A stretch of DNA of 64,000 nt from Sphingobacteriales bacterium (lineage in GTDB: Bacteria > Bacteroidota > Bacteroidia > Chitinophagales > JADIYW01), in NCBI GenBank assembly GCA_016719635.1, contig JADJYT010000001.1, forward strand, positions 641,205 to 705,204, in the 5' to 3' direction. The stretch's first letter is position 1, and every line of letters starts with the position of its first letter. Positions 57,549 through 64,000 of this stretch are shown here, piece by piece. The notes under the pieces are model-generated. The model was not told the origin of the DNA. It saw only the letters and a list, made by a program, of their open reading frames with translations, and ran no database searches. The position numbers were made by a program, and so were the translations under genes.

Positions 57549-57878
57549 TTATGATTCAGCAGGCATATCATTAAACATACCGATGAATTTCAACATCGCA
57601 CCAAGGTTGCTGATTTTGATTTTACCCATCATTACTGCCATTTGTCTGTTTACTCTTCCCAATTCAGCATCTTCAAAATCCGTTGCCAATGCCGAGATGA
57701 CACAATCCGGCTCGCCGGATAAACCATCTGTTACCGTGCATTGTCCTTCTGCTACGTTTACTGTAAATTCTCCGCCTGTTTCACCTTCCAATTGAAAATG
57801 AAAAACACCGCTTTGTCCCGCAGCTTCTTCCACTTTCAATCTTCCCGGTAATGCTAATACAATCTCTTTTGCTGTCAT
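57549..57878 (-). CDS. SCP2 sterol/lipid-carrier domain protein
   Basis: 109 aa. GVFHFQLEGETGGEFTVNV...GKIKISNLGAMLKF is the SCP2 pattern. Confidence 0.7.
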   Translation of the reverse strand: MTAKEIVLALPGRLKVEEAAGQSGVFHFQLEGETGGEFTVNVAEGQCTVTDGLSGEPDCVISALATDFEDAELGRVNRQMAVMMGKIKISNLGAMLKFIGMFNDMPAES

Positions 57879-57948
57879 TTTTATTCTTTTTGTTGGTTAA
57901 AAATTGATTTCTAACCCAAATGTAAAATATTTTTTTTGAATAAACAAA

Positions 57949-57963
57949 ATTTTACCAAACGTT
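57949..57963. promoter_or_regulatory. candidate operator, copy 1 (ATTTTACCAAACGTT)
   Basis: Identical 15-mer to 58036-58050. Here it continues into inverted arms CAAACG-TT-CGTTTG. Confidence 0.4.
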
Positions 57964-58035
57964 CGTTTGTTAATATTCCACAAGTTACTGAAAAACTATT
58001 AATTACGAACTATTAACATAAATTTTACATGAAAT

Positions 58036-58050
58036 ATTTTACCAAACGTT
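58036..58050. promoter_or_regulatory. candidate operator, copy 2 (ATTTTACCAAACGTT)
   Basis: Contains the perfect palindrome AAACGTTT. It lies 24 nt upstream of a -7-like TAAACTTG (58074-81) and 78 nt upstream of ATG 58128. Confidence 0.4.
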
Positions 58051-58127
58051 TAGTCAAATAGAAAGAAATTGCGTAAACTTGTTTATCTGTTTAAACCATA
58101 AATCCATTCATCCAAACTTAGACAATA

Positions 58128-59726
58128 ATGAGTGTCATAAAATCTAAAGTCAATACCAATTCAGCCGCTTACAAAGAGAATTATCAGAAGATGCTGGTGA
58201 AGATTGAAGAGTTGAATAAGCACCTAAAACAATCCTTGTATCAGGGAGAAGAAAAACATCTTGCTAAGGCAAAATCTCAAGGCAAATTTCTGGCACGCGA
58301 ACGCATAGAACTCGTACTCGATCAGGACTCCCCTTTTTTAGAACTTTTGCCATTGGCTGGATTGGGTGTTAAAGGTGGTTTTGGAACAGGCGGTACCATG
58401 GTAGCCGGCATTGGGTTCGTTTCAGGCAAAATGTGTCTGATTACAGCCAATGTGGGCACCAATAAAGGCGGTGCCATTGATATCGCTACCTTGAAAAAAG
58501 CCTTGCGCATCAACGAAATCGGGAATGAGAACAACCTGCCATCCATCAACCTCGTGGAAAGTGCGGGTGCCAACTTACCCGATCAGGCGCAGGTATTCAA
58601 TTTAGGTGGCAATAATTTTAAAGAAATCACCCGCCGTTCTAAGAAAGGCATTCCAACCATTTCTATTGTATTTGGCAATTCCACTGCCGGCGGTGCCTAT
58701 ATTCCGGGCATGTCCGATTATACCATCTTCATTAAAGGAAAAGCAAAAGTATTTTTAGCAGGACCTCCACTGGTAAAAATGGCAACCAATGAAATTGTAG
58801 ACGATGAAACCTTAGGCGGCGCAGAAATGCACTCCAAAATTTCAGGTGTATCCGATTACCTGGCACAGGACGAACTCGACGGCATCCGAATTGCACGTGA
58901 ACTAATGGCAAATCTGGATGTAAAACATGACACAAAAAACACAGGCGTTTACAAAGAACCTAACTATTCCATTGACGAGTTACTTGGCATTGTTTCAGTA
59001 GATACAAAAGTGCCGTTTGATTGCCGTGAAGTGATTGCCCGTTTAGTAGATGGCTCTGAGTTTCATGAATTCAAGAAAGAATACGGCACTACCTTAATCT
59101 GTGGCTATGCCAAAATACACGGTTATCCGATTGCTATTATAGGTAATAATGGTGTGCTCTTTAATGACTCCTCTAACAAAGGCGCACATTTTATCCAGTT
59201 GTGCAACATGAACAACACACCTATTTTATTCCTGCAAAATATCACCGGATTTATGGTGGGTAAAGAATACGAACAAAACGGAATGATCAAAGACGGAGCG
59301 AAAATGATAAACGCTGTCTCCAACTCTGAAGTGCCGATGTTCACCCTGATGATGGGTGCTTCTTACGGTGCGGGCAACTATGCGATGTGCGGCCGCGCCT
59401 ACAATCCGCGTTTCCTGTTCTCCTACCCGAACAGCATGATTGCAGTCATGGGTTCTGAACAATTGGCCGGTGTGATGCAGATGGTGAGCCGTGAAGCCGC
59501 CATCAAAAGCGGACAGCAATTCGATGAAGCGCAGGCAGCGCAGATGAAAGAATTCATGAAAGCGGAAATTGAAAAACAAAGCAATGCATTCTTCGCTACC
59601 GGTCAGCTCTGGGATGACGGCATCATCGACCCGAGAGATACTCGTCATGTGTTCGGACTGGTCTTAGCCTTAACCTATATGAATGAAGTGAAAGGCACGA
59701 ATGCCTGGGGAGTTTACCGCATGTAA
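58128..59726 (+). CDS. acyl-CoA carboxylase carboxyltransferase (beta) subunit, methylcrotonyl-CoA / geranyl-CoA carboxylase type
   Basis: 532 aa. N-terminal ...GKFLARERIELVLDQDSPFLELLPLAG is typical of MccB/AtuC rather than PccB. Two crotonase-like CT domains. Confidence 0.85.
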   Translation: MSVIKSKVNTNSAAYKENYQKMLVKIEELNKHLKQSLYQGEEKHLAKAKSQGKFLARERIELVLDQDSPFLELLPLAGLGVKGGFGTGGTMVAGIGFVSGKMCLITANVGTNKGGAIDIATLKKALRINEIGNENNLPSINLVESAGANLPDQAQVFNLGGNNFKEITRRSKKGIPTISIVFGNSTAGGAYIPGMSDYTIFIKGKAKVFLAGPPLVKMATNEIVDDETLGGAEMHSKISGVSDYLAQDELDGIRIARELMANLDVKHDTKNTGVYKEPNYSIDELLGIVSVDTKVPFDCREVIARLVDGSEFHEFKKEYGTTLICGYAKIHGYPIAIIGNNGVLFNDSSNKGAHFIQLCNMNNTPILFLQNITGFMVGKEYEQNGMIKDGAKMINAVSNSEVPMFTLMMGASYGAGNYAMCGRAYNPRFLFSYPNSMIAVMGSEQLAGVMQMVSREAAIKSGQQFDEAQAAQMKEFMKAEIEKQSNAFFATGQLWDDGIIDPRDTRHVFGLVLALTYMNEVKGTNAWGVYRM

Positions 59727-59766
59727 TTACGATTTCAGATTTATGAATTAAGATTTAAACAGCAGC

Positions 59767-60126
59767 ATGAATTCGACTGAATTAAAAGATAGAACTAAGA
59801 AATTTGCAGTGAATACTATAAAATTCACAGATGGAATTAAGCCAACTTATGCAAATGTTGTAATAATTAAACAAGTTATTAGATCGGCAACTTCTGTTGG
59901 TGCAAATTACAGGGCTGCATTACGCGGAAAATCTAATCCTGATTTCGTAAACAAAATAAATATTATTCAAGAAGAAGCTGATGAATCAATTTATTGGTTT
60001 GAACTATTAGAAGAAACAAATACACAATTAAAAGGAATTGATGAATTGATAAAGGAAGCTAATGAATTAACTGCAATATTTTCTGCAATTCTAAAAACAC
60101 TTAAATTTAAAAATAACAAAAAATAA
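59767..60126 (+). CDS. four-helix-bundle protein (23S rRNA intervening-sequence protein / Avd-like family)
   Basis: 119 aa. IRSATSVGANYRAALRGKSNPDFVNKINIIQEEADESIYWFELL is the family core. Strongly AT-rich (15 G+C in 59821-59880). Confidence 0.8.
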   Translation: MNSTELKDRTKKFAVNTIKFTDGIKPTYANVVIIKQVIRSATSVGANYRAALRGKSNPDFVNKINIIQEEADESIYWFELLEETNTQLKGIDELIKEANELTAIFSAILKTLKFKNNKK

Positions 60127-60129
60127 TTT

Positions 60130-60188
60130 GAATTCTGAATTCATAAATCATGAGTAAAACAAATCTGAATTCTGAAATCATAAATCAT
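60130..60188 (+). repeat. 22-nt direct repeat (21/22 identical) built from 7-nt tandem units, carrying a duplicate of the downstream start region
   Basis: gaattctgaattcataaatcat (60130-51) versus gaattctgaaatcataaatcat (60167-88). ATGAGTAAAA occurs at 60150-59 and again as the real start at 60193-60202. Confidence 0.8.
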
Positions 60189-60192
60189 AAAT

Positions 60193-62211
60193 ATGAGTAA
60201 AATAACCAAACTACTAGTAGCGAACCGCGGTGAAATTGCGGTGCGTATATTCAAAAGCTGCAAAGAAATGGGCATCGCCACCGTGGCTGTTTTTTCAGAT
60301 GCAGATGAACATGCGCTATTTGTAAAGCTGGCAGATGAAGCGGTGCGCATTGGCGGCAAACAACCTGCCGAGTCGTATTTGGTCATGGATAAAATCATCG
60401 ATGCTGCGAAACGAACCTGTGCCAATGCCATCCATCCGGGCTATGGTTTCTTATCTGAACGCACGGAATTTGCCAAACGCTGCAACGACGAAGGCATCAT
60501 CTGGGTCGGACCGCATCCGCAGGCGATTGAAGTGATGGGCTCCAAAATCGGCGCCAAGAAAATCATGCAGTCGCACAATGTGCCTACCATTCCGGGTTAT
60601 CAGGGCGACGACCAGAGCGAAGCCACTATTAAAGCAAAAGCCATAGAAATCGGATTTCCCGTGTTGCTGAAAGCCAGTGCAGGCGGCGGCGGAAAAGGGA
60701 TGCGTATCGTGCGTCAGGAAAGCGAACTCGACAAAGCCATCAACGAAGCAAAATCAGAGGCCTTATCCGGTTTTGGTGATGATACCTTATTGATTGAAAA
60801 ATATTTCGACACGTCACGCCATGTGGAGTTTCAGATTTTCGGTGATAAACACGGCAACGCGATTCATTTATTTGAACGCGAGTGCAGCATTCAGCGCCGG
60901 TATCAGAAAGTGGTGGAAGAAAGTCCTTCACCGTTTATCACGGAAGAAACGCGACAAAAAATGGGCGATGCTGCAGTTGCGGCGTGCAAAGCCATCCAAT
61001 ACGACAATGCCGGAACCGTAGAGTTTATTGTAGCTCCCGACCAGTCCTTCTATTTCCTGGAAGTCAATACACGCTTACAGGTGGAACATCCAATTACGGA
61101 AGAAGTGACCGGTTTGGATTTGGTGCGTCTGCAAATTGAAGTAGCTGCGGGCAACTCTATTCCGTTCAAACAGGAAGACGTACAACAATGCGGACATTCC
61201 ATTGAAGTGCGTTTTTATGCGGAAGATCCGGCCAATAATTTCATGCCGGTGAATGGGAAAATCCTGGACTGGATTCCAGCTAATTCAGAAGGTTTGCGTT
61301 ATGATACGGGTATTGAAAGCGGCTCTGAAATTTCCACGTACTACGACCCTATGATTGCTAAAGTAATTGGTTCGGGTAAAAACAGAAACGAAGCCATCAA
61401 TCGTTTAAAGAAATGCTTACAGGAAACGGTTTGTACAGGTTTCACTACCAATAAAAACTTCCTGATTGCCATTTTAGAGAATGAACATTTTCAGAAAGGC
61501 GAATTTGACACCCACTTTTTAGATAAGGTATTCAAATACGAAGGAGAAAAATATCCGCAGGAAACGCTGGATATCCTGACCTGTGCATTGATTCACTATA
61601 GATTCCTGCAACGTCAGCAGGAACGAACCGTGGCACAAGGTGTTCCGGCAGGCTGGAGAAACAATGCGTATCAGCCTCAAAAGGAAACCTACTCCTTCCA
61701 CGGATTTGAATTCCCGATTACATATATCAGCAACAACAACGAACTGCAGATTTCTTTTGCCGATAAAGAATTTACATCTATTTATCATAACGCAAATGAG
61801 CGCCGTCATTCCGAGCCGCCAACTGGCGGATCGGAATCTCATCCTGTTTGGCACACCCTCGAAATAAACGGCATCCGTCGTAACTTCTTCATTTCCAAAA
61901 ACGGACATCAGTACTTCATACAGTCCGCGCAACTCGGACAAATCGTATTGAATATCGTGGACCGTTTCCCGAATCCGAATGAGGAAGTCGTGAAAGGCGG
62001 TTACATCGCTCCTATGCCGGGTGAAATCACATTAGTATTGGTAAAACCGGGCGATGCGGTAAAATCAGGCGATGCCTTATTGAAAATGATTTCTATGAAA
62101 ATGGAAAGCACCATAGAAGCCCATACCGACGGCGAAGTGGAAGAAGTATATGTAACGGATAAACAGTTTTTGGAAGCGGGAACGTTGTTGTTGAAGATGA
62201 AGGAAGAGTAA
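60193..62211 (+). CDS. acyl-CoA carboxylase biotin-carboxylase + biotin-carrier (alpha) subunit, MccA/AtuF type
   Basis: 672 aa. ATP-grasp biotin carboxylase (KLLVANRGEIAVRI, GGGGKGMRIV, EVNTRLQVEHP) and a C-terminal biotinyl domain with SMKME. Confidence 0.9.
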   Translation: MSKITKLLVANRGEIAVRIFKSCKEMGIATVAVFSDADEHALFVKLADEAVRIGGKQPAESYLVMDKIIDAAKRTCANAIHPGYGFLSERTEFAKRCNDEGIIWVGPHPQAIEVMGSKIGAKKIMQSHNVPTIPGYQGDDQSEATIKAKAIEIGFPVLLKASAGGGGKGMRIVRQESELDKAINEAKSEALSGFGDDTLLIEKYFDTSRHVEFQIFGDKHGNAIHLFERECSIQRRYQKVVEESPSPFITEETRQKMGDAAVAACKAIQYDNAGTVEFIVAPDQSFYFLEVNTRLQVEHPITEEVTGLDLVRLQIEVAAGNSIPFKQEDVQQCGHSIEVRFYAEDPANNFMPVNGKILDWIPANSEGLRYDTGIESGSEISTYYDPMIAKVIGSGKNRNEAINRLKKCLQETVCTGFTTNKNFLIAILENEHFQKGEFDTHFLDKVFKYEGEKYPQETLDILTCALIHYRFLQRQQERTVAQGVPAGWRNNAYQPQKETYSFHGFEFPITYISNNNELQISFADKEFTSIYHNANERRHSEPPTGGSESHPVWHTLEINGIRRNFFISKNGHQYFIQSAQLGQIVLNIVDRFPNPNEEVVKGGYIAPMPGEITLVLVKPGDAVKSGDALLKMISMKMESTIEAHTDGEVEEVYVTDKQFLEAGTLLLKMKEE

Positions 62212-62257
62212 TGTAAAAATGTAACAATGTAGCAATGAAATAATGGAATAATGCAAG
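62210..62257 (+). repeat. six phased 8-nt AATGNNNN units forming a start-stop mini-ORF ladder
   Basis: aatgtaaa aatgtaac aatgtagc aatgaaat aatggaat aatgcaag. ATGs at 62211/19/27/35/43 are each closed within 0-1 codons. The sixth (62251) opens the 262-aa ORF. Confidence 0.85.
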
Positions 62258-63039
62258 AAGAAAAAAATAAAATATCTTTAAACGACAAAATTGTAAATTT
62301 TGTTTCTAATAATATCGTTTGGGTATTTCTAGGATTTATTGTTATTGTAATCATTCTTCCAAGATTATTTATAAAAGACTCTCCTTTAGGAATTTTTAAT
62401 GGCTTAAAAGCAAATGAAATAGGTGATGCAATTGGAGGAATGACAGCACCTATTATTGGCTTATTTTCATCATTCTTAGTTTATATTGCATTTAGAGAAC
62501 AAGTAATTGCAAATAGAATGTTAAAAGAACAAAACATACATAATACAATAGACAGACACTTAAAAATAATAGAAAACATAAGACACGACATCCAATCTTT
62601 TAAAATAAATATAAATCCATCTGTTTATAACAAAGCCACTTACTTAAGAGGGATTGAATCAATTGAACATATATTCACTCTACTCAATCCAGGTGGCTTT
62701 ATGAAAGCAGATATTTATCTAAGAAAACACTATGAAGATATTATTCGAACTTATTTACTTTCATTAAGAATAATTCAGGACATTAAGGAACTAGACTCAA
62801 ACATAAACGAAAAGATATTACTCTTAAATAAACTAACATTCTTAAAAACGAACAACCTTTCTGAAATTGAAATTATACAAAATTTCAAAAAAGGTACTTT
62901 TGGAGAAGATGAATATAAACTAAAAGTTTTCATCAAAGACAACTTACTTAAAATTTTAAATGAATTCAATGACGAATACAATAAAACATACAATTTATAT
63001 ATAACAAAACTTATCAACCCATTACCTAAAATAAATTAA
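62251..63039 (+). CDS. AT-rich 2-TM protein, tentatively AbiC-like (putative abortive-infection) family
   Basis: 262 aa. TM1 IVWVFLGFIVIVIILP, then EIGDAIGGMTAPIIGLFSSFLVYIAFREQ (as I recall, a GD-x-GG...P motif leading into TM2, typical of putAbiC-type proteins), then a helical N/K/I-rich C-domain. 14 G+C in 62281-62340 against 24 in 62041-62100. Confidence 0.4.
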   Translation: MQEEKNKISLNDKIVNFVSNNIVWVFLGFIVIVIILPRLFIKDSPLGIFNGLKANEIGDAIGGMTAPIIGLFSSFLVYIAFREQVIANRMLKEQNIHNTIDRHLKIIENIRHDIQSFKININPSVYNKATYLRGIESIEHIFTLLNPGGFMKADIYLRKHYEDIIRTYLLSLRIIQDIKELDSNINEKILLLNKLTFLKTNNLSEIEIIQNFKKGTFGEDEYKLKVFIKDNLLKILNEFNDEYNKTYNLYITKLINPLPKIN

Positions 63040-63052
63040 AAAGACATAACCC

Positions 63053-63877
63053 ATGCTATACACACAACAAGACATCAGTAATTTCTCCGAACAATCTTTC
63101 GCGTATCTGATTGTGGAAGAAAAGGACAATGTGCTCAGCATCACGCTCAATCGTCCGGATAAACGCAATGCCTTTCATATGCCATTGGCGAATGAATTGG
63201 CTTATGCCCTCGCCTACGCGCATTACAACAATGCCATCTGGGCGGTCGTGCTGAAAGCCAACGGACCGACGTTTTGTGCTGGTGCGGATTTAAAGGCCTT
63301 CGGCGGAGCGGATACCACCGAAAAGCCATCCACGATTCCCATGCCTAAAGATATGGTAAAACTGGGCGATGAATTCAACGGTCTGCACAAGCCCTGCATC
63401 GCACAGGTACATGCAGATGTGTACGCCGGCGGCTTCCTGATGATTGGCGGTGCTACACATGTCGTCGCTGTGGAAGAGGCGAAATTCGGCTTGCCTGAAG
63501 TGAAACGCGGTATTTTCCCGTTTCAGGTCATGGCTACGTTGGAACCCTTAATGTCCGCACGGCAATTGCTGGATTTATGTCTGCGCGCCAAAACACTGAC
63601 GGCTCAGGAAGCAAAAGAAATTGGTCTGGTTTCTGCCGTGGTGAAAGCAGATGAATTGGAAGTTACGGTACAACAACTCGTGGAAGACATAAAAGAACAA
63701 TCACCTACGGCAATACGCTTGGGGTTGAAAGCCTTTCATGAAATGAAATCCCTGAAAGCAGATGAGAAACACAAATACCTGCACGCCATGCTGATGCAAT
63801 GCCTGAGCAGCAAAGATGCAGCGGAAGGATTGGCTGCGTTTAAGGAAAAAAGAAAAGCGAGTTGGACTGGAAATTAA
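63053..63877 (+). CDS. enoyl-CoA hydratase/isomerase family (methylglutaconyl-CoA / isohexenylglutaconyl-CoA hydratase-like)
   Basis: 274 aa. Crotonase fold with LNRPDKRNAF, FCAGADLK, GLPEVKRGIFP. Confidence 0.85.
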   Translation: MLYTQQDISNFSEQSFAYLIVEEKDNVLSITLNRPDKRNAFHMPLANELAYALAYAHYNNAIWAVVLKANGPTFCAGADLKAFGGADTTEKPSTIPMPKDMVKLGDEFNGLHKPCIAQVHADVYAGGFLMIGGATHVVAVEEAKFGLPEVKRGIFPFQVMATLEPLMSARQLLDLCLRAKTLTAQEAKEIGLVSAVVKADELEVTVQQLVEDIKEQSPTAIRLGLKAFHEMKSLKADEKHKYLHAMLMQCLSSKDAAEGLAAFKEKRKASWTGN

Positions 63878-63887
63878 TCAATTAGAA

Positions 63888-63935
63888 GATGTACCAATGT
63901 ACCGATTAAGTTCATTGTTACATCGTTACATCGTT
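63888..63935 (+). repeat. 8-nt phased tandem units in the operon spacer (gATGTACC aATGTACC ... ACATCGTT ACATCGTT)
   Basis: Read directly. The 8-nt register persists from 63888 to the ATG at 63949-51. Confidence 0.7.
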
Positions 63936-63948
63936 AAATTAGTACATT

Positions 63949-64000
63949 ATGAAGACAATCAGAATAGCAGGCGCACAGGGTTTCTACGGAGACTCTCCTT
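63949..64000 (+). CDS. AtuA-like (DUF1446, acyclic terpene utilisation) protein, first 17 codons only
   Basis: MKTIRIAGAQGFYGDSP... matches my recollection of the DUF1446 N-terminus (IRIG.G.GFWGDS). It runs off the window. Confidence 0.45.
   Translation, partial: MKTIRIAGAQGFYGDSP

Follow-up and report, generated by a model that had tools for sequence, protein, structure and literature searches.

The intervening-sequence (IVS) protein family PF05635 is large, occurs in most bacterial phyla and is related to the DGR protein Avd. Members of this family, S23p, are encoded by 23S rRNA IVSs of Coxiella, Leptospira, Xanthomonas and Brucella, which sit in helix 25 or 45 of the rRNA. In Coxiella burnetii, the S23p IVS has a 28-bp terminal stem, and RNase III cuts within that stem (Warrier et al. 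2016, PMC4990558). In this IVS, GACAGAT stands two or three times in tandem immediately ahead of the start codon, with a copy number that differs among strains, while the ORF itself is decaying and apparently untranslated (PMC4990558). Genes of the family have also been found lodged within cas operons (PMC3936711), and Avd, the DGR accessory protein, belongs to the family and has a homologous four-helix-bundle fold (PMC10053308).

Heptanucleotide repeats have a literature of their own. Over-represented intergenic heptamers include GGGAATC in Xanthomonas, where 70–75 convergent (inverted) pairs occur, and GGGGAYT in Nostoc (Rehm et al. 2015, PMC4692102), and among the TAACTGA repeats of Beggiatoaceae, Cyanobacteria and Bacteroidetes many stand immediately ahead of a start codon (MacGregor 2015, PMC4679880). 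Both studies take the arrays by themselves, interpreting them as G-quadruplexes or as sites of a post-transcriptional regulator, and the names of the PF05635 gene family are absent from both texts. A full-text literature search returned no paper linking heptamer arms to PF05635-family genes outside rRNA. What is in print is a family gene inside a 23S rRNA IVS, with a stem, heptamers and RNase III cleavage; the arms described here belong to an operon-borne cassette. At this locus the PF05635 family and over-represented heptanucleotide repeats come together, and the setting is an ordinary metabolic operon instead of rRNA.

The window, that is, the whole stretch of DNA that was analysed, spans 64,000 nt of a Sphingobacteriales genome. 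At 59727–60192, a 466-bp segment of low G+C (approximately 29%, versus approximately 47% in the flanking genes) holds a 119-aa gene together with both of its arms (Table 1). Very probably, in our view, this segment is a four-helix-bundle cassette of the IVS type that carries heptamer arms and was inserted into the spacer of an operon. A first-pass annotation, made from the sequence alone, had placed a four-helix-bundle gene between two carboxylase genes, and both the family and the coordinates are correct. The protein scores 49.4 bits against PF05635 (cut-off 33.8) and 78.1 bits against TIGR02436 (cut-off 24), and it matches the solved structure PDB 2RLD with E=5e-16. The stop codon of the beta-subunit gene lies 4 nt ahead of the first heptamer, and the alpha-subunit gene is followed on its 3' side by genes for an enoyl-CoA hydratase, AtuA, an AtuA-ferredoxin-domain protein and an acyl-CoA dehydrogenase; the operon is a Liu/Atu-type catabolic cluster. 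The genome has three genes of the four-helix-bundle family in all, one of them 5.3 kb downstream within the same cluster, and the arms of the three copies are of three different flavours.

Table 1. Positions of the cassette, its parts and the two host genes, in window coordinates.
Feature	Position	Strand	Basis
Acyl-CoA carboxylase beta subunit (carboxyltransferase), upstream host gene	58128..59726	+	PF01039, E=2e-127
Predicted long-range closing stem, ~29 interrupted pairs, 59720-59757 with ~60160-60195	59720..60195	+	MFE and centroid folds; 21-pair stem kept in nine orthologs
Left spacer	59727-59766		
5' arm: four tandem 7-nt units GATTTCA GATTTAT GAATTAA GATTTAA (GAWTTNN)	59731..59758	+	Read directly; TRF period 7; inverted repeats I1-I4; matching array in eight orthologs
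Four-helix-bundle gene, 119 aa (23S rRNA IVS protein / Avd-related family)	59767..60126	+	PF05635, TIGR02436, PDB 2RLD
Right spacer	60127-60192		
3' arm, copy 1: TGAATTC TGAATTC ATAAATC (NNAAWTC); contains the 12-nt perfect complement of 59738-59749	60129..60149	+	Sequence, repeat search
Duplicate of the alpha start (ATGAGTAAAAC); begins a uORF of 16 codons, which stops 3 nt beyond the real ATG	60150..60200	+	D3, 13 nt, 92%
3' arm, copy 2: ACAAATC TGAATTC TGAAATC ATAAATC ATAAAT; adjoins the alpha start codon	60159..60192	+	D1 tandem repeat, 37 nt, 84%; MFE and centroid fold
Acyl-CoA carboxylase alpha subunit (biotin carboxylase and biotinyl domain), downstream host gene	60193..62211	+	PF02786, PF00289, PF02785, PF00364

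By analogy, we read the cassette as an operon-borne counterpart of the ORF-bearing 23S rRNA IVSs. The first-pass annotation had been reminded of these elements, and the resemblance turns out to be specific, with the Coxiella IVS sharing the gene family, the terminal stem and the heptamers before the start codon. Stem-forming terminal inverted repeats surround the ORF so that it would lie in the loop of the stem, tandem heptamers lie directly upstream of it, and elements of both kinds measure approximately 430–470 nt. The host differs, however, since the site is the spacer between two enzyme-subunit genes, in an mRNA, and not a helix of 23S rRNA. RNase III cleavage has been shown for the Coxiella IVS, whereas the stem of the cassette is a predicted substrate by likeness. 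The ORF of the Coxiella IVS is decaying, while that of the cassette is under purifying selection (see below). An Rfam search of 57800–64000 gave neither a match nor an rRNA, save one chance snoRNA hit far under the gathering score. A relationship to DGR Avd had also been mentioned; the cassette is not a DGR, because the only reverse-transcriptase (RVT_1) hit of the genome lies 139 kb away (C1:839976), and neither a reverse transcriptase nor template/variable repeats, which adjoin Avd, are found near it. With PADLOC, neither the four-helix-bundle gene nor a neighbouring 262-aa orphan matched a defence system.

Two pairs of complementary stretches had been pointed out in the spacers, gatttcaga (59731–39) with tctgaaatc (60171–79) and gatttatgaatt (59738–49) with aattcataaatc (60138–49), and both are exact in letters and position. 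They had been taken for two separate stems, of 9 and 12 bp, and here the matches stand but the alternatives do not. All units share a GAWTT/AAWTC core, which allows several pairing registers, so that what had looked like two stems is one heptamer array in different registers; a repeat search accordingly returned inverted arms of 22–25 nt, 80–86% complementary, in several registers (I1–I4). On the coding strand, the 5' arm is rich in G and poor in C. A 22-nt direct repeat described in the right spacer (60129–60150 versus 60166–60187, 21/22 identical) is also there, and the spacer as a whole is a tandem duplication (D1, 37 nt at 84%, and D3, 13 nt at 92%). When the region 59720–60210 was folded as RNA, as the annotation had advised, the MFE and centroid structures alike contained a closing stem that is predicted to enclose the entire ORF and to take in the beta stop and the alpha AUG, with the second copy of the 3' arm as partner of the 5' arm. 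The fold energy of the whole region is unexceptional (z = -1.4). Chance alone produced the perfect 12-nt complementary run between spacers in 5 of 5000 shuffles and a 9-nt run in 150 of 5000, as well as in 6 of 192 AT-rich genomic 66-mers; at these frequencies the 9-mer alone is weak and the 12-mer moderately significant. The real support for pairing of the putative arms comes from relatives, rather than from shuffle odds.

The duplicated alpha start is a different matter. The first-pass annotation had found ATGAGTAAAA both at 60150 and at the real start, 60193, the upstream copy opening a uORF of 16 codons that ends at 60198–60200 in a frame other than that of alpha, and all of this is correct (the offset is 43 nt). 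It is not a conserved decoy device, as it was seen in this genome only among nine cassette-bearing orthologs. The right spacers of all eight others (L006–L019) have a single right arm, without the second start or the duplicated arm. A uORF that stops 3 nt beyond the alpha ATG could couple translation, and the duplicated start matches the real one at 12 of 13 positions, but with its restriction to one genome and its location inside a tandem duplication of 37 nt (43 nt counting one extra heptamer), which is typical of slippage, we think it very unlikely that the copy and its uORF are a regulatory decoy start or a translational coupling that controls the alpha subunit. Its sequence marks the decoy start as a recent product of slippage in the repeat array, 43 nt long, and not as a designed feature.

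To see what stands at the same place in relatives, we compared the beta|alpha junction of 30 genomes from this genus and family. The cassette is present at exactly this junction in nine species of the genus, with protein identities of 64–81%. Elsewhere the junction is occupied in other ways: two genomes have a 49-nt spacer with left-arm units only (L012, L016), one has a right arm and left-end remnants (L022), two have long, decayed, gene-less arrays (L023, L029), five have unrelated hairpins without a gene (L005/L007, L015/L017, L020), and three have other inserted genes (L010, L021, L026). Seven more distant genomes represent other families of the order, except L198, which is another genus of this family; in four of the seven, the spacers are approximately 16–60 nt long and free of GAWTT arrays. 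These short, array-free outgroup spacers indicate that the arms are part of the cassette and that the cassette is an insertion. The earlier proposal of an inserted cassette is thus borne out by the drop in G+C, by the outgroup spacers and by filled, scarred and otherwise occupied sites within the genus. Spacer sequences conserved in relatives that lack the cassette had been named as evidence to the contrary, and this applies in part: L012, L016 and L022 keep one arm, while the outgroups have no arrays. Judged by their sequences, the one-arm spacers look like deletion scars. Taken together, the comparison shows a DNA insertion, in or before the ancestor of this genus, into a spacer that is short in the outgroup families covered, and the insertion has been retained since.

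A second site in the same operon, between the AtuA gene and the ferredoxin-domain gene, offers a similar picture. Empty junctions there measure 0–17 nt, TGA|ATG included, three are filled, one carries a 42-nt scar in which the left arm survives together with ~15 nt from the 5' end of the ORF, and in other relatives other hairpin families stand at the same spot. No target-site duplication was seen when filled and empty sites were compared at either junction, and no recent movement was seen among the orthologs, whose synonymous sites are saturated. With array-free outgroup spacers, nine filled sites, one-arm scars and a second site within one operon, the locus is an unusually clean natural series. 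The many gene-less hairpin or solo copies beside few gene-bearing ones, and the insertions at gene junctions, are also features of REP/RAYT elements and MITEs. Unlike these, the cassette has arms that differ among the copies of one genome, and neither a linked transposase nor a target duplication was seen. A MITE or TIR transposon was rejected on the three arm flavours in three copies and the lack of a duplication at filled versus empty sites. The genome has four weak PF01797 (Y1/RAYT) hits, all at C1:17–29 kb, ~670 kb off and far from the arrays examined.

Both the protein and the arms have been kept by selection, or at least well beyond what neutral change would leave. Between orthologs, dN/dS of the small gene is 0.05–0.09, with dS at a saturated 1.3–2.0, and the four-helix-bundle protein is under strong purifying selection. 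Among six orthologs with type A arms, ungapped arm identity is 0.80–0.82, compared with 0.64–0.71 for heptamer-block shuffles and 0.38–0.45 for four-fold sites of the adjacent genes. A gapped measure of arm identity was dropped as uninformative because shuffled arms scored as high as 0.78–0.89. When the arms of the nine orthologs were joined and passed to RNAalifold, a 21-pair stem emerged in which 93.1% of cells are paired, versus 14–59% for sliding partners. Both sides have changed at three of its pairs, and the covariation score was matched by 3 of 500 shuffles; the covariation traces to the type B lineage alone, and so may reflect one evolutionary event. The two arm types are A (CAGATTT/AAATCTG) and B (GGGATTT/AAATCCC), and left and right arms complement each other better within a type (A–A 18.6, B–B 19.0) than across types (12.5, 15.4). 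In L014, three units are mirrored in order between the arms, at 26/28. Horizontal exchange of the two types was considered and set aside, as vertical descent is not rejected by the host tree, in which one change suffices (tree without L014). The alignments show that the predicted arm-to-arm stem has been retained across orthologs, and arms and stem have been kept far beyond neutral expectation.

The same build is found well beyond this operon. We pooled 138 loci: 32 came from relatives, one of which had too little sequence for scoring, a further 80 were spread over many phyla, and 29 encode relatives of this very protein in other families of the class. The locus search used an eight-sequence subgroup alignment. 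A census of family flanks had been suggested in the first-pass annotation, and the inverted repeats are indeed shared, with 69 of 138 loci exceeding the 95th percentile of a mismatched-pair null and 38 of 138 the 99th. Duplex energy is -30.1 kcal/mol for a locus's own flanks versus -18.4 for mismatched flanks. The arms have a period of 7 (autocorrelation 0.73, versus 0.2–0.3 at periods 5, 6, 8 and 9) and approximately 4–6 units (median 39 nt). Tandem 7-nt units, mostly about four per array, intergenic and with indels in 7-nt steps, are likewise seen in the published heptamer repeats. Of 38 strongly armed loci, 36 have a 5' arm with more G than C, as read on the coding strand, and 2 have the reverse. 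Where the two neighbours lie on one strand, the cassette is co-oriented with them in 103 cases and opposite in 3. In the larger subfamily the core is N4-A(86%)-G(86%)-T/G, at 2.91 bits versus 1.99 +/- 0.08 in column-permuted controls. Periodic GA[AT]T precedes the gene in 18 of the 23 loci from the subgroup to which this cassette belongs, versus 11 of 94 in the other, a contrast whose Fisher p=1e-9 is overstated because related loci are not independent. Periodic AG[TG] stands upstream in 63 of 94 loci of the other subgroup, and the reverse orientation in just 4 and 7 of 94. These counts show a repeat core that, as far as sequences can tell, is oriented and specific to the protein subfamily. 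The heptamer-arm build appears to hold across the whole gene family, while in print it exists only for the ribosomal-RNA copies.

Heptamer arrays also occur where there is no such gene. The period-7 arrays of this genome number 137, and an inverted partner above control occurs only here and at C3:318201–318367, a hairpin without a gene; with just 2 of 137 arrays having such a partner, arms are not a general property of heptamer arrays. Triple GAWTT units number 1151 in 33 genomes of the genus, compared with 103 for the reversed pattern. The median number of GAWTT arrays per genome is 32 with the subgroup gene versus 28.5 without it (p=0.17), and genomes that lack the gene have up to 68. Array number is thus unrelated to gene presence, so the arrays do not depend on the protein; as they outnumber and outlive the genes, a model in which arrays exist only as sites of a cognate protein is weakened. 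A role of the arrays as three-frame stop codons was discarded, since GC-rich arrays such as CAGTGGG contain no stops.

How the cassette acts is less firm than what it is. With a probability of about 0.45, we favour a cassette that acts mainly through RNase III processing of an RNA stem, perhaps under the influence of the protein that it encodes. The cassette would be transcribed within the beta–alpha mRNA, where the arrays would pair into an interrupted stem of ~21–29 bp around the ORF, touching the beta stop and the alpha start. If it behaves as in the rRNA copies, RNase III would recognise the double-stranded stem and cut it, which would release the mRNA of the small gene and uncouple beta from alpha. 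The encoded oligomeric protein may also recognise the 5' array, as suggested by the oriented, subfamily-specific heptamer core. On the side of an RNA role are the rRNA-borne relatives that RNase III cuts in a heptamer stem, the presence of an RNase III gene (rnc) in this genome and the strict co-orientation and polarity; on the other side, the arms are AT-rich and lie ~400 nt apart. Across the 138 loci, arm mismatches comprise 83 that are G:U-compatible, 88 of the A:C type (p=0.76) and 121 transversions. A stem selected as RNA ought to show more of the G:U kind; the even split gives no sign of RNA-level selection for pairing and weakens a purely RNA-level reading. Duplex energies are alike on both strands (-30.1 vs -31.8). 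Symmetric mismatches and equal strand energies resemble the outcome of neutral decay in arms that started out complementary, or of constraint at the DNA level.

The main rival to the RNA-stem reading, and one that does not exclude it, is a selfish element that acts at the DNA level, which we regard as possible but doubtful. In such an element, the arms would be cruciform or single-strand hairpin ends for insertion and loss at stop/start junctions, with host replication or repair enzymes, or a further enzyme, as agents; the arms would be born complementary and then decay, and pairing in the mRNA would be incidental. Two junctions of one operon that are filled, empty, scarred or differently filled would suit it, and so would the gene-less hairpins at the same junctions (CGCAAAG type in L005/L007, CACAGAG type in L174/L176/L191), the symmetric mismatch spectrum with its many transversions, the low GC and arrays far more numerous than genes. 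However, the cassette has no transposase or nuclease and no visible target-site duplication, the three copies in the genome differ in their arms, and the orthologs are old and show no recent movement. The 103:3 co-orientation and 36:2 polarity would be unexpected for a symmetric DNA hairpin, and the preservation of arms and stem goes far beyond what neutral decay predicts.

A heptad operator, in which the four-helix-bundle oligomer would bind both arrays as double-stranded DNA and repress or loop its own gene, strikes us as unlikely. There is a precedent on DNA in the omega/ParB protein of pSM19035, for which contiguous 7-bp heptads, direct or inverted, are the binding sites (PMC9499535), and a conserved, oriented, subfamily-specific core with about four to six units per arm would fit. 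The complementarity of the arms would then reflect two oppositely oriented sets of one site. Yet site recognition alone needs no mirroring of the variable unit positions, which are mirrored too in L014, no promoter was identified in the cassette and none can be made out in the arms, the cassettes point the same way as the operon around them, and arrays persist in genomes without the protein. That there is no element at all, only low-complexity AT-rich slippage in the spacers with complementarity by chance, is scarcely credible. It could draw on the ~3% of shuffles that yield a 9-nt run and on the period-7 arrays of this genome, most of which have no inverted partner and score like random controls. 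It is already contradicted by the family-wide controls, in which matched flanks pair far better than mismatched ones at 138 loci from many phyla, and by the rarity of the 12-nt run in shuffles, a stem kept in nine species and the polarity of the arms.

Returning to the RNA-stem reading, a bolder form of it, which we offer as speculation and think rather improbable, would make the proteins of the family ring-shaped readers of heptamer-spaced cores (N4-AG-T/G, GAWTT and others, one flavour per subfamily). Such a protein would bind the G-rich 5' arm of its own transcript in competition with the long-range stem, and would in this way govern RNase III cleavage and the translation of the neighbouring host genes. 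If true, the cassette would be a self-contained, portable riboregulatory module, and this module would account for the ORF-bearing rRNA intervening sequences as well as for the heptanucleotide repeats of many bacterial genomes. HutP and TRAP are RNA-binding regulators of ring shape that recognise repeated triplets. A protein that works in a comparable way is HutP, which reads XAG-N4 triplets on single-stranded RNA, three per face, in competition with a stem (PMC2425495). The likeness to HutP/TRAP would be one of working only: the 5' arm of the larger subfamily, with N4-A-G-(T/G) every 7 nt, has the HutP spacing, whereas the alpha/beta fold of HutP is unrelated to a four-helix bundle, and the subgroup of this cassette has GAWTT as its core instead of NAG.

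Hairpin elements unrelated to the four-helix-bundle cassettes, built from other short repeats and carrying no gene, were found in sister species at exactly the stop/start junctions that these cassettes fill. Two lie between the carboxylase beta- and alpha-subunit genes (L005 and L007) and four at the AtuA junction (L174, L176, L183, and L191), and their short-repeat types include CGCAAAG... and CACAGAG.... Since unrelated hairpins occupy identical junctions, these junctions are hot spots for several hairpin families. The AtuA junction itself is occupied in the genome under study by a second four-helix-bundle cassette, with arms of the ATGTAnn/nnTACAT type, flanked on one side by AtuA (PF07287) and on the other by a separate AtuA-ferredoxin-domain gene (PF23544). 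Among relatives, this junction spans 0–17 nt (TGA/ATG), is filled, or holds a 42-nt scar, CACAGAG hairpins, or inserts of ~900 nt.

Features outside the main cassette (G000, genome under study; C, contig; L, locus; G006, G020, and G045, other genomes)
Feature	Location	Details
Second four-helix-bundle cassette	G000:C1:706599-706907 (L002:1468-1824)	1.4 kb past window end, same catabolic cluster
Third four-helix-bundle copy	G000:C2:545879-546202 (L001)	AATGRAG units upstream; TATCAAT/TTTCAAC units downstream
Tandem four-helix-bundle genes	L051 (G045:C1:4046553-4048294)	
Gene-less hairpin, GAWTT flavour	G000:C3:318201-318367	arms GAATTATGATTTGAGAATTGAGAATT and TTAAATCGTAATTCTGAAATCATAATTC, 114 nt between
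Solo right-arm-type arrays	G000 C1:101469-101503, C9:160541-160561, C16:11843-11870, C7:232259-232286	coding strand AAATCNN
Solo heptamer array	window 62212-62250	TGTAAAA ATGTAAC AATGTAG CAATGAA ATAATGG; precedes orphan ORF
Orphan ORF, 262 aa	window 62251-63039	in insert 62212-63039
Inserts, 1.06-1.17 kb	L010 (G006), L199 (G020)	two ORFs each; beta/alpha junction

On the sense strand, the arms of the third copy are predicted to pair weakly (-17.1 kcal/mol); the antisense strand gives a stronger predicted pairing (-30.7 kcal/mol). At one beta/alpha junction (L019, in G014), the four-helix-bundle ORF has lost its stop codon, and its frame continues through the right arm to a TAA that overlaps the alpha-subunit start (ATGTCTAAA). 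In the tandem pair, the open frames reach about 50 codons further upstream across long heptamer arrays, which in translation give a peptide with a seven-residue period (RITNYEL...).

Arrays of the main cassette's flavour also occur without the gene. The GAWTT hairpin on C3 is possibly a decayed cassette. The four solo AAATCNN arrays stop 9–14 nt 5' of the start codons of ordinary genes, a placement also seen at the alpha subunit; they resemble TAACTGA repeats, for which a location upstream of start codons has been described (PMC4679880).

Within the window, a second AT-rich insert separates the alpha-subunit gene from that of enoyl-CoA hydratase. Its orphan ORF had no match in Pfam or PADLOC searches, and no array complementary to the preceding one was found on its 3' side. 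That array is of the AATGTAn flavour, as are the arms on the four-helix-bundle gene 4.3 kb downstream. The 1.06-1.17 kb inserts at the beta/alpha junction share their second ORF (MKKEIQELVEYALTSETNKK...); the ORFs of the L010 insert encode 185 and 143 aa, and the first ORF of the L199 insert is instead similar to the 160-aa insert of another locus, L021.
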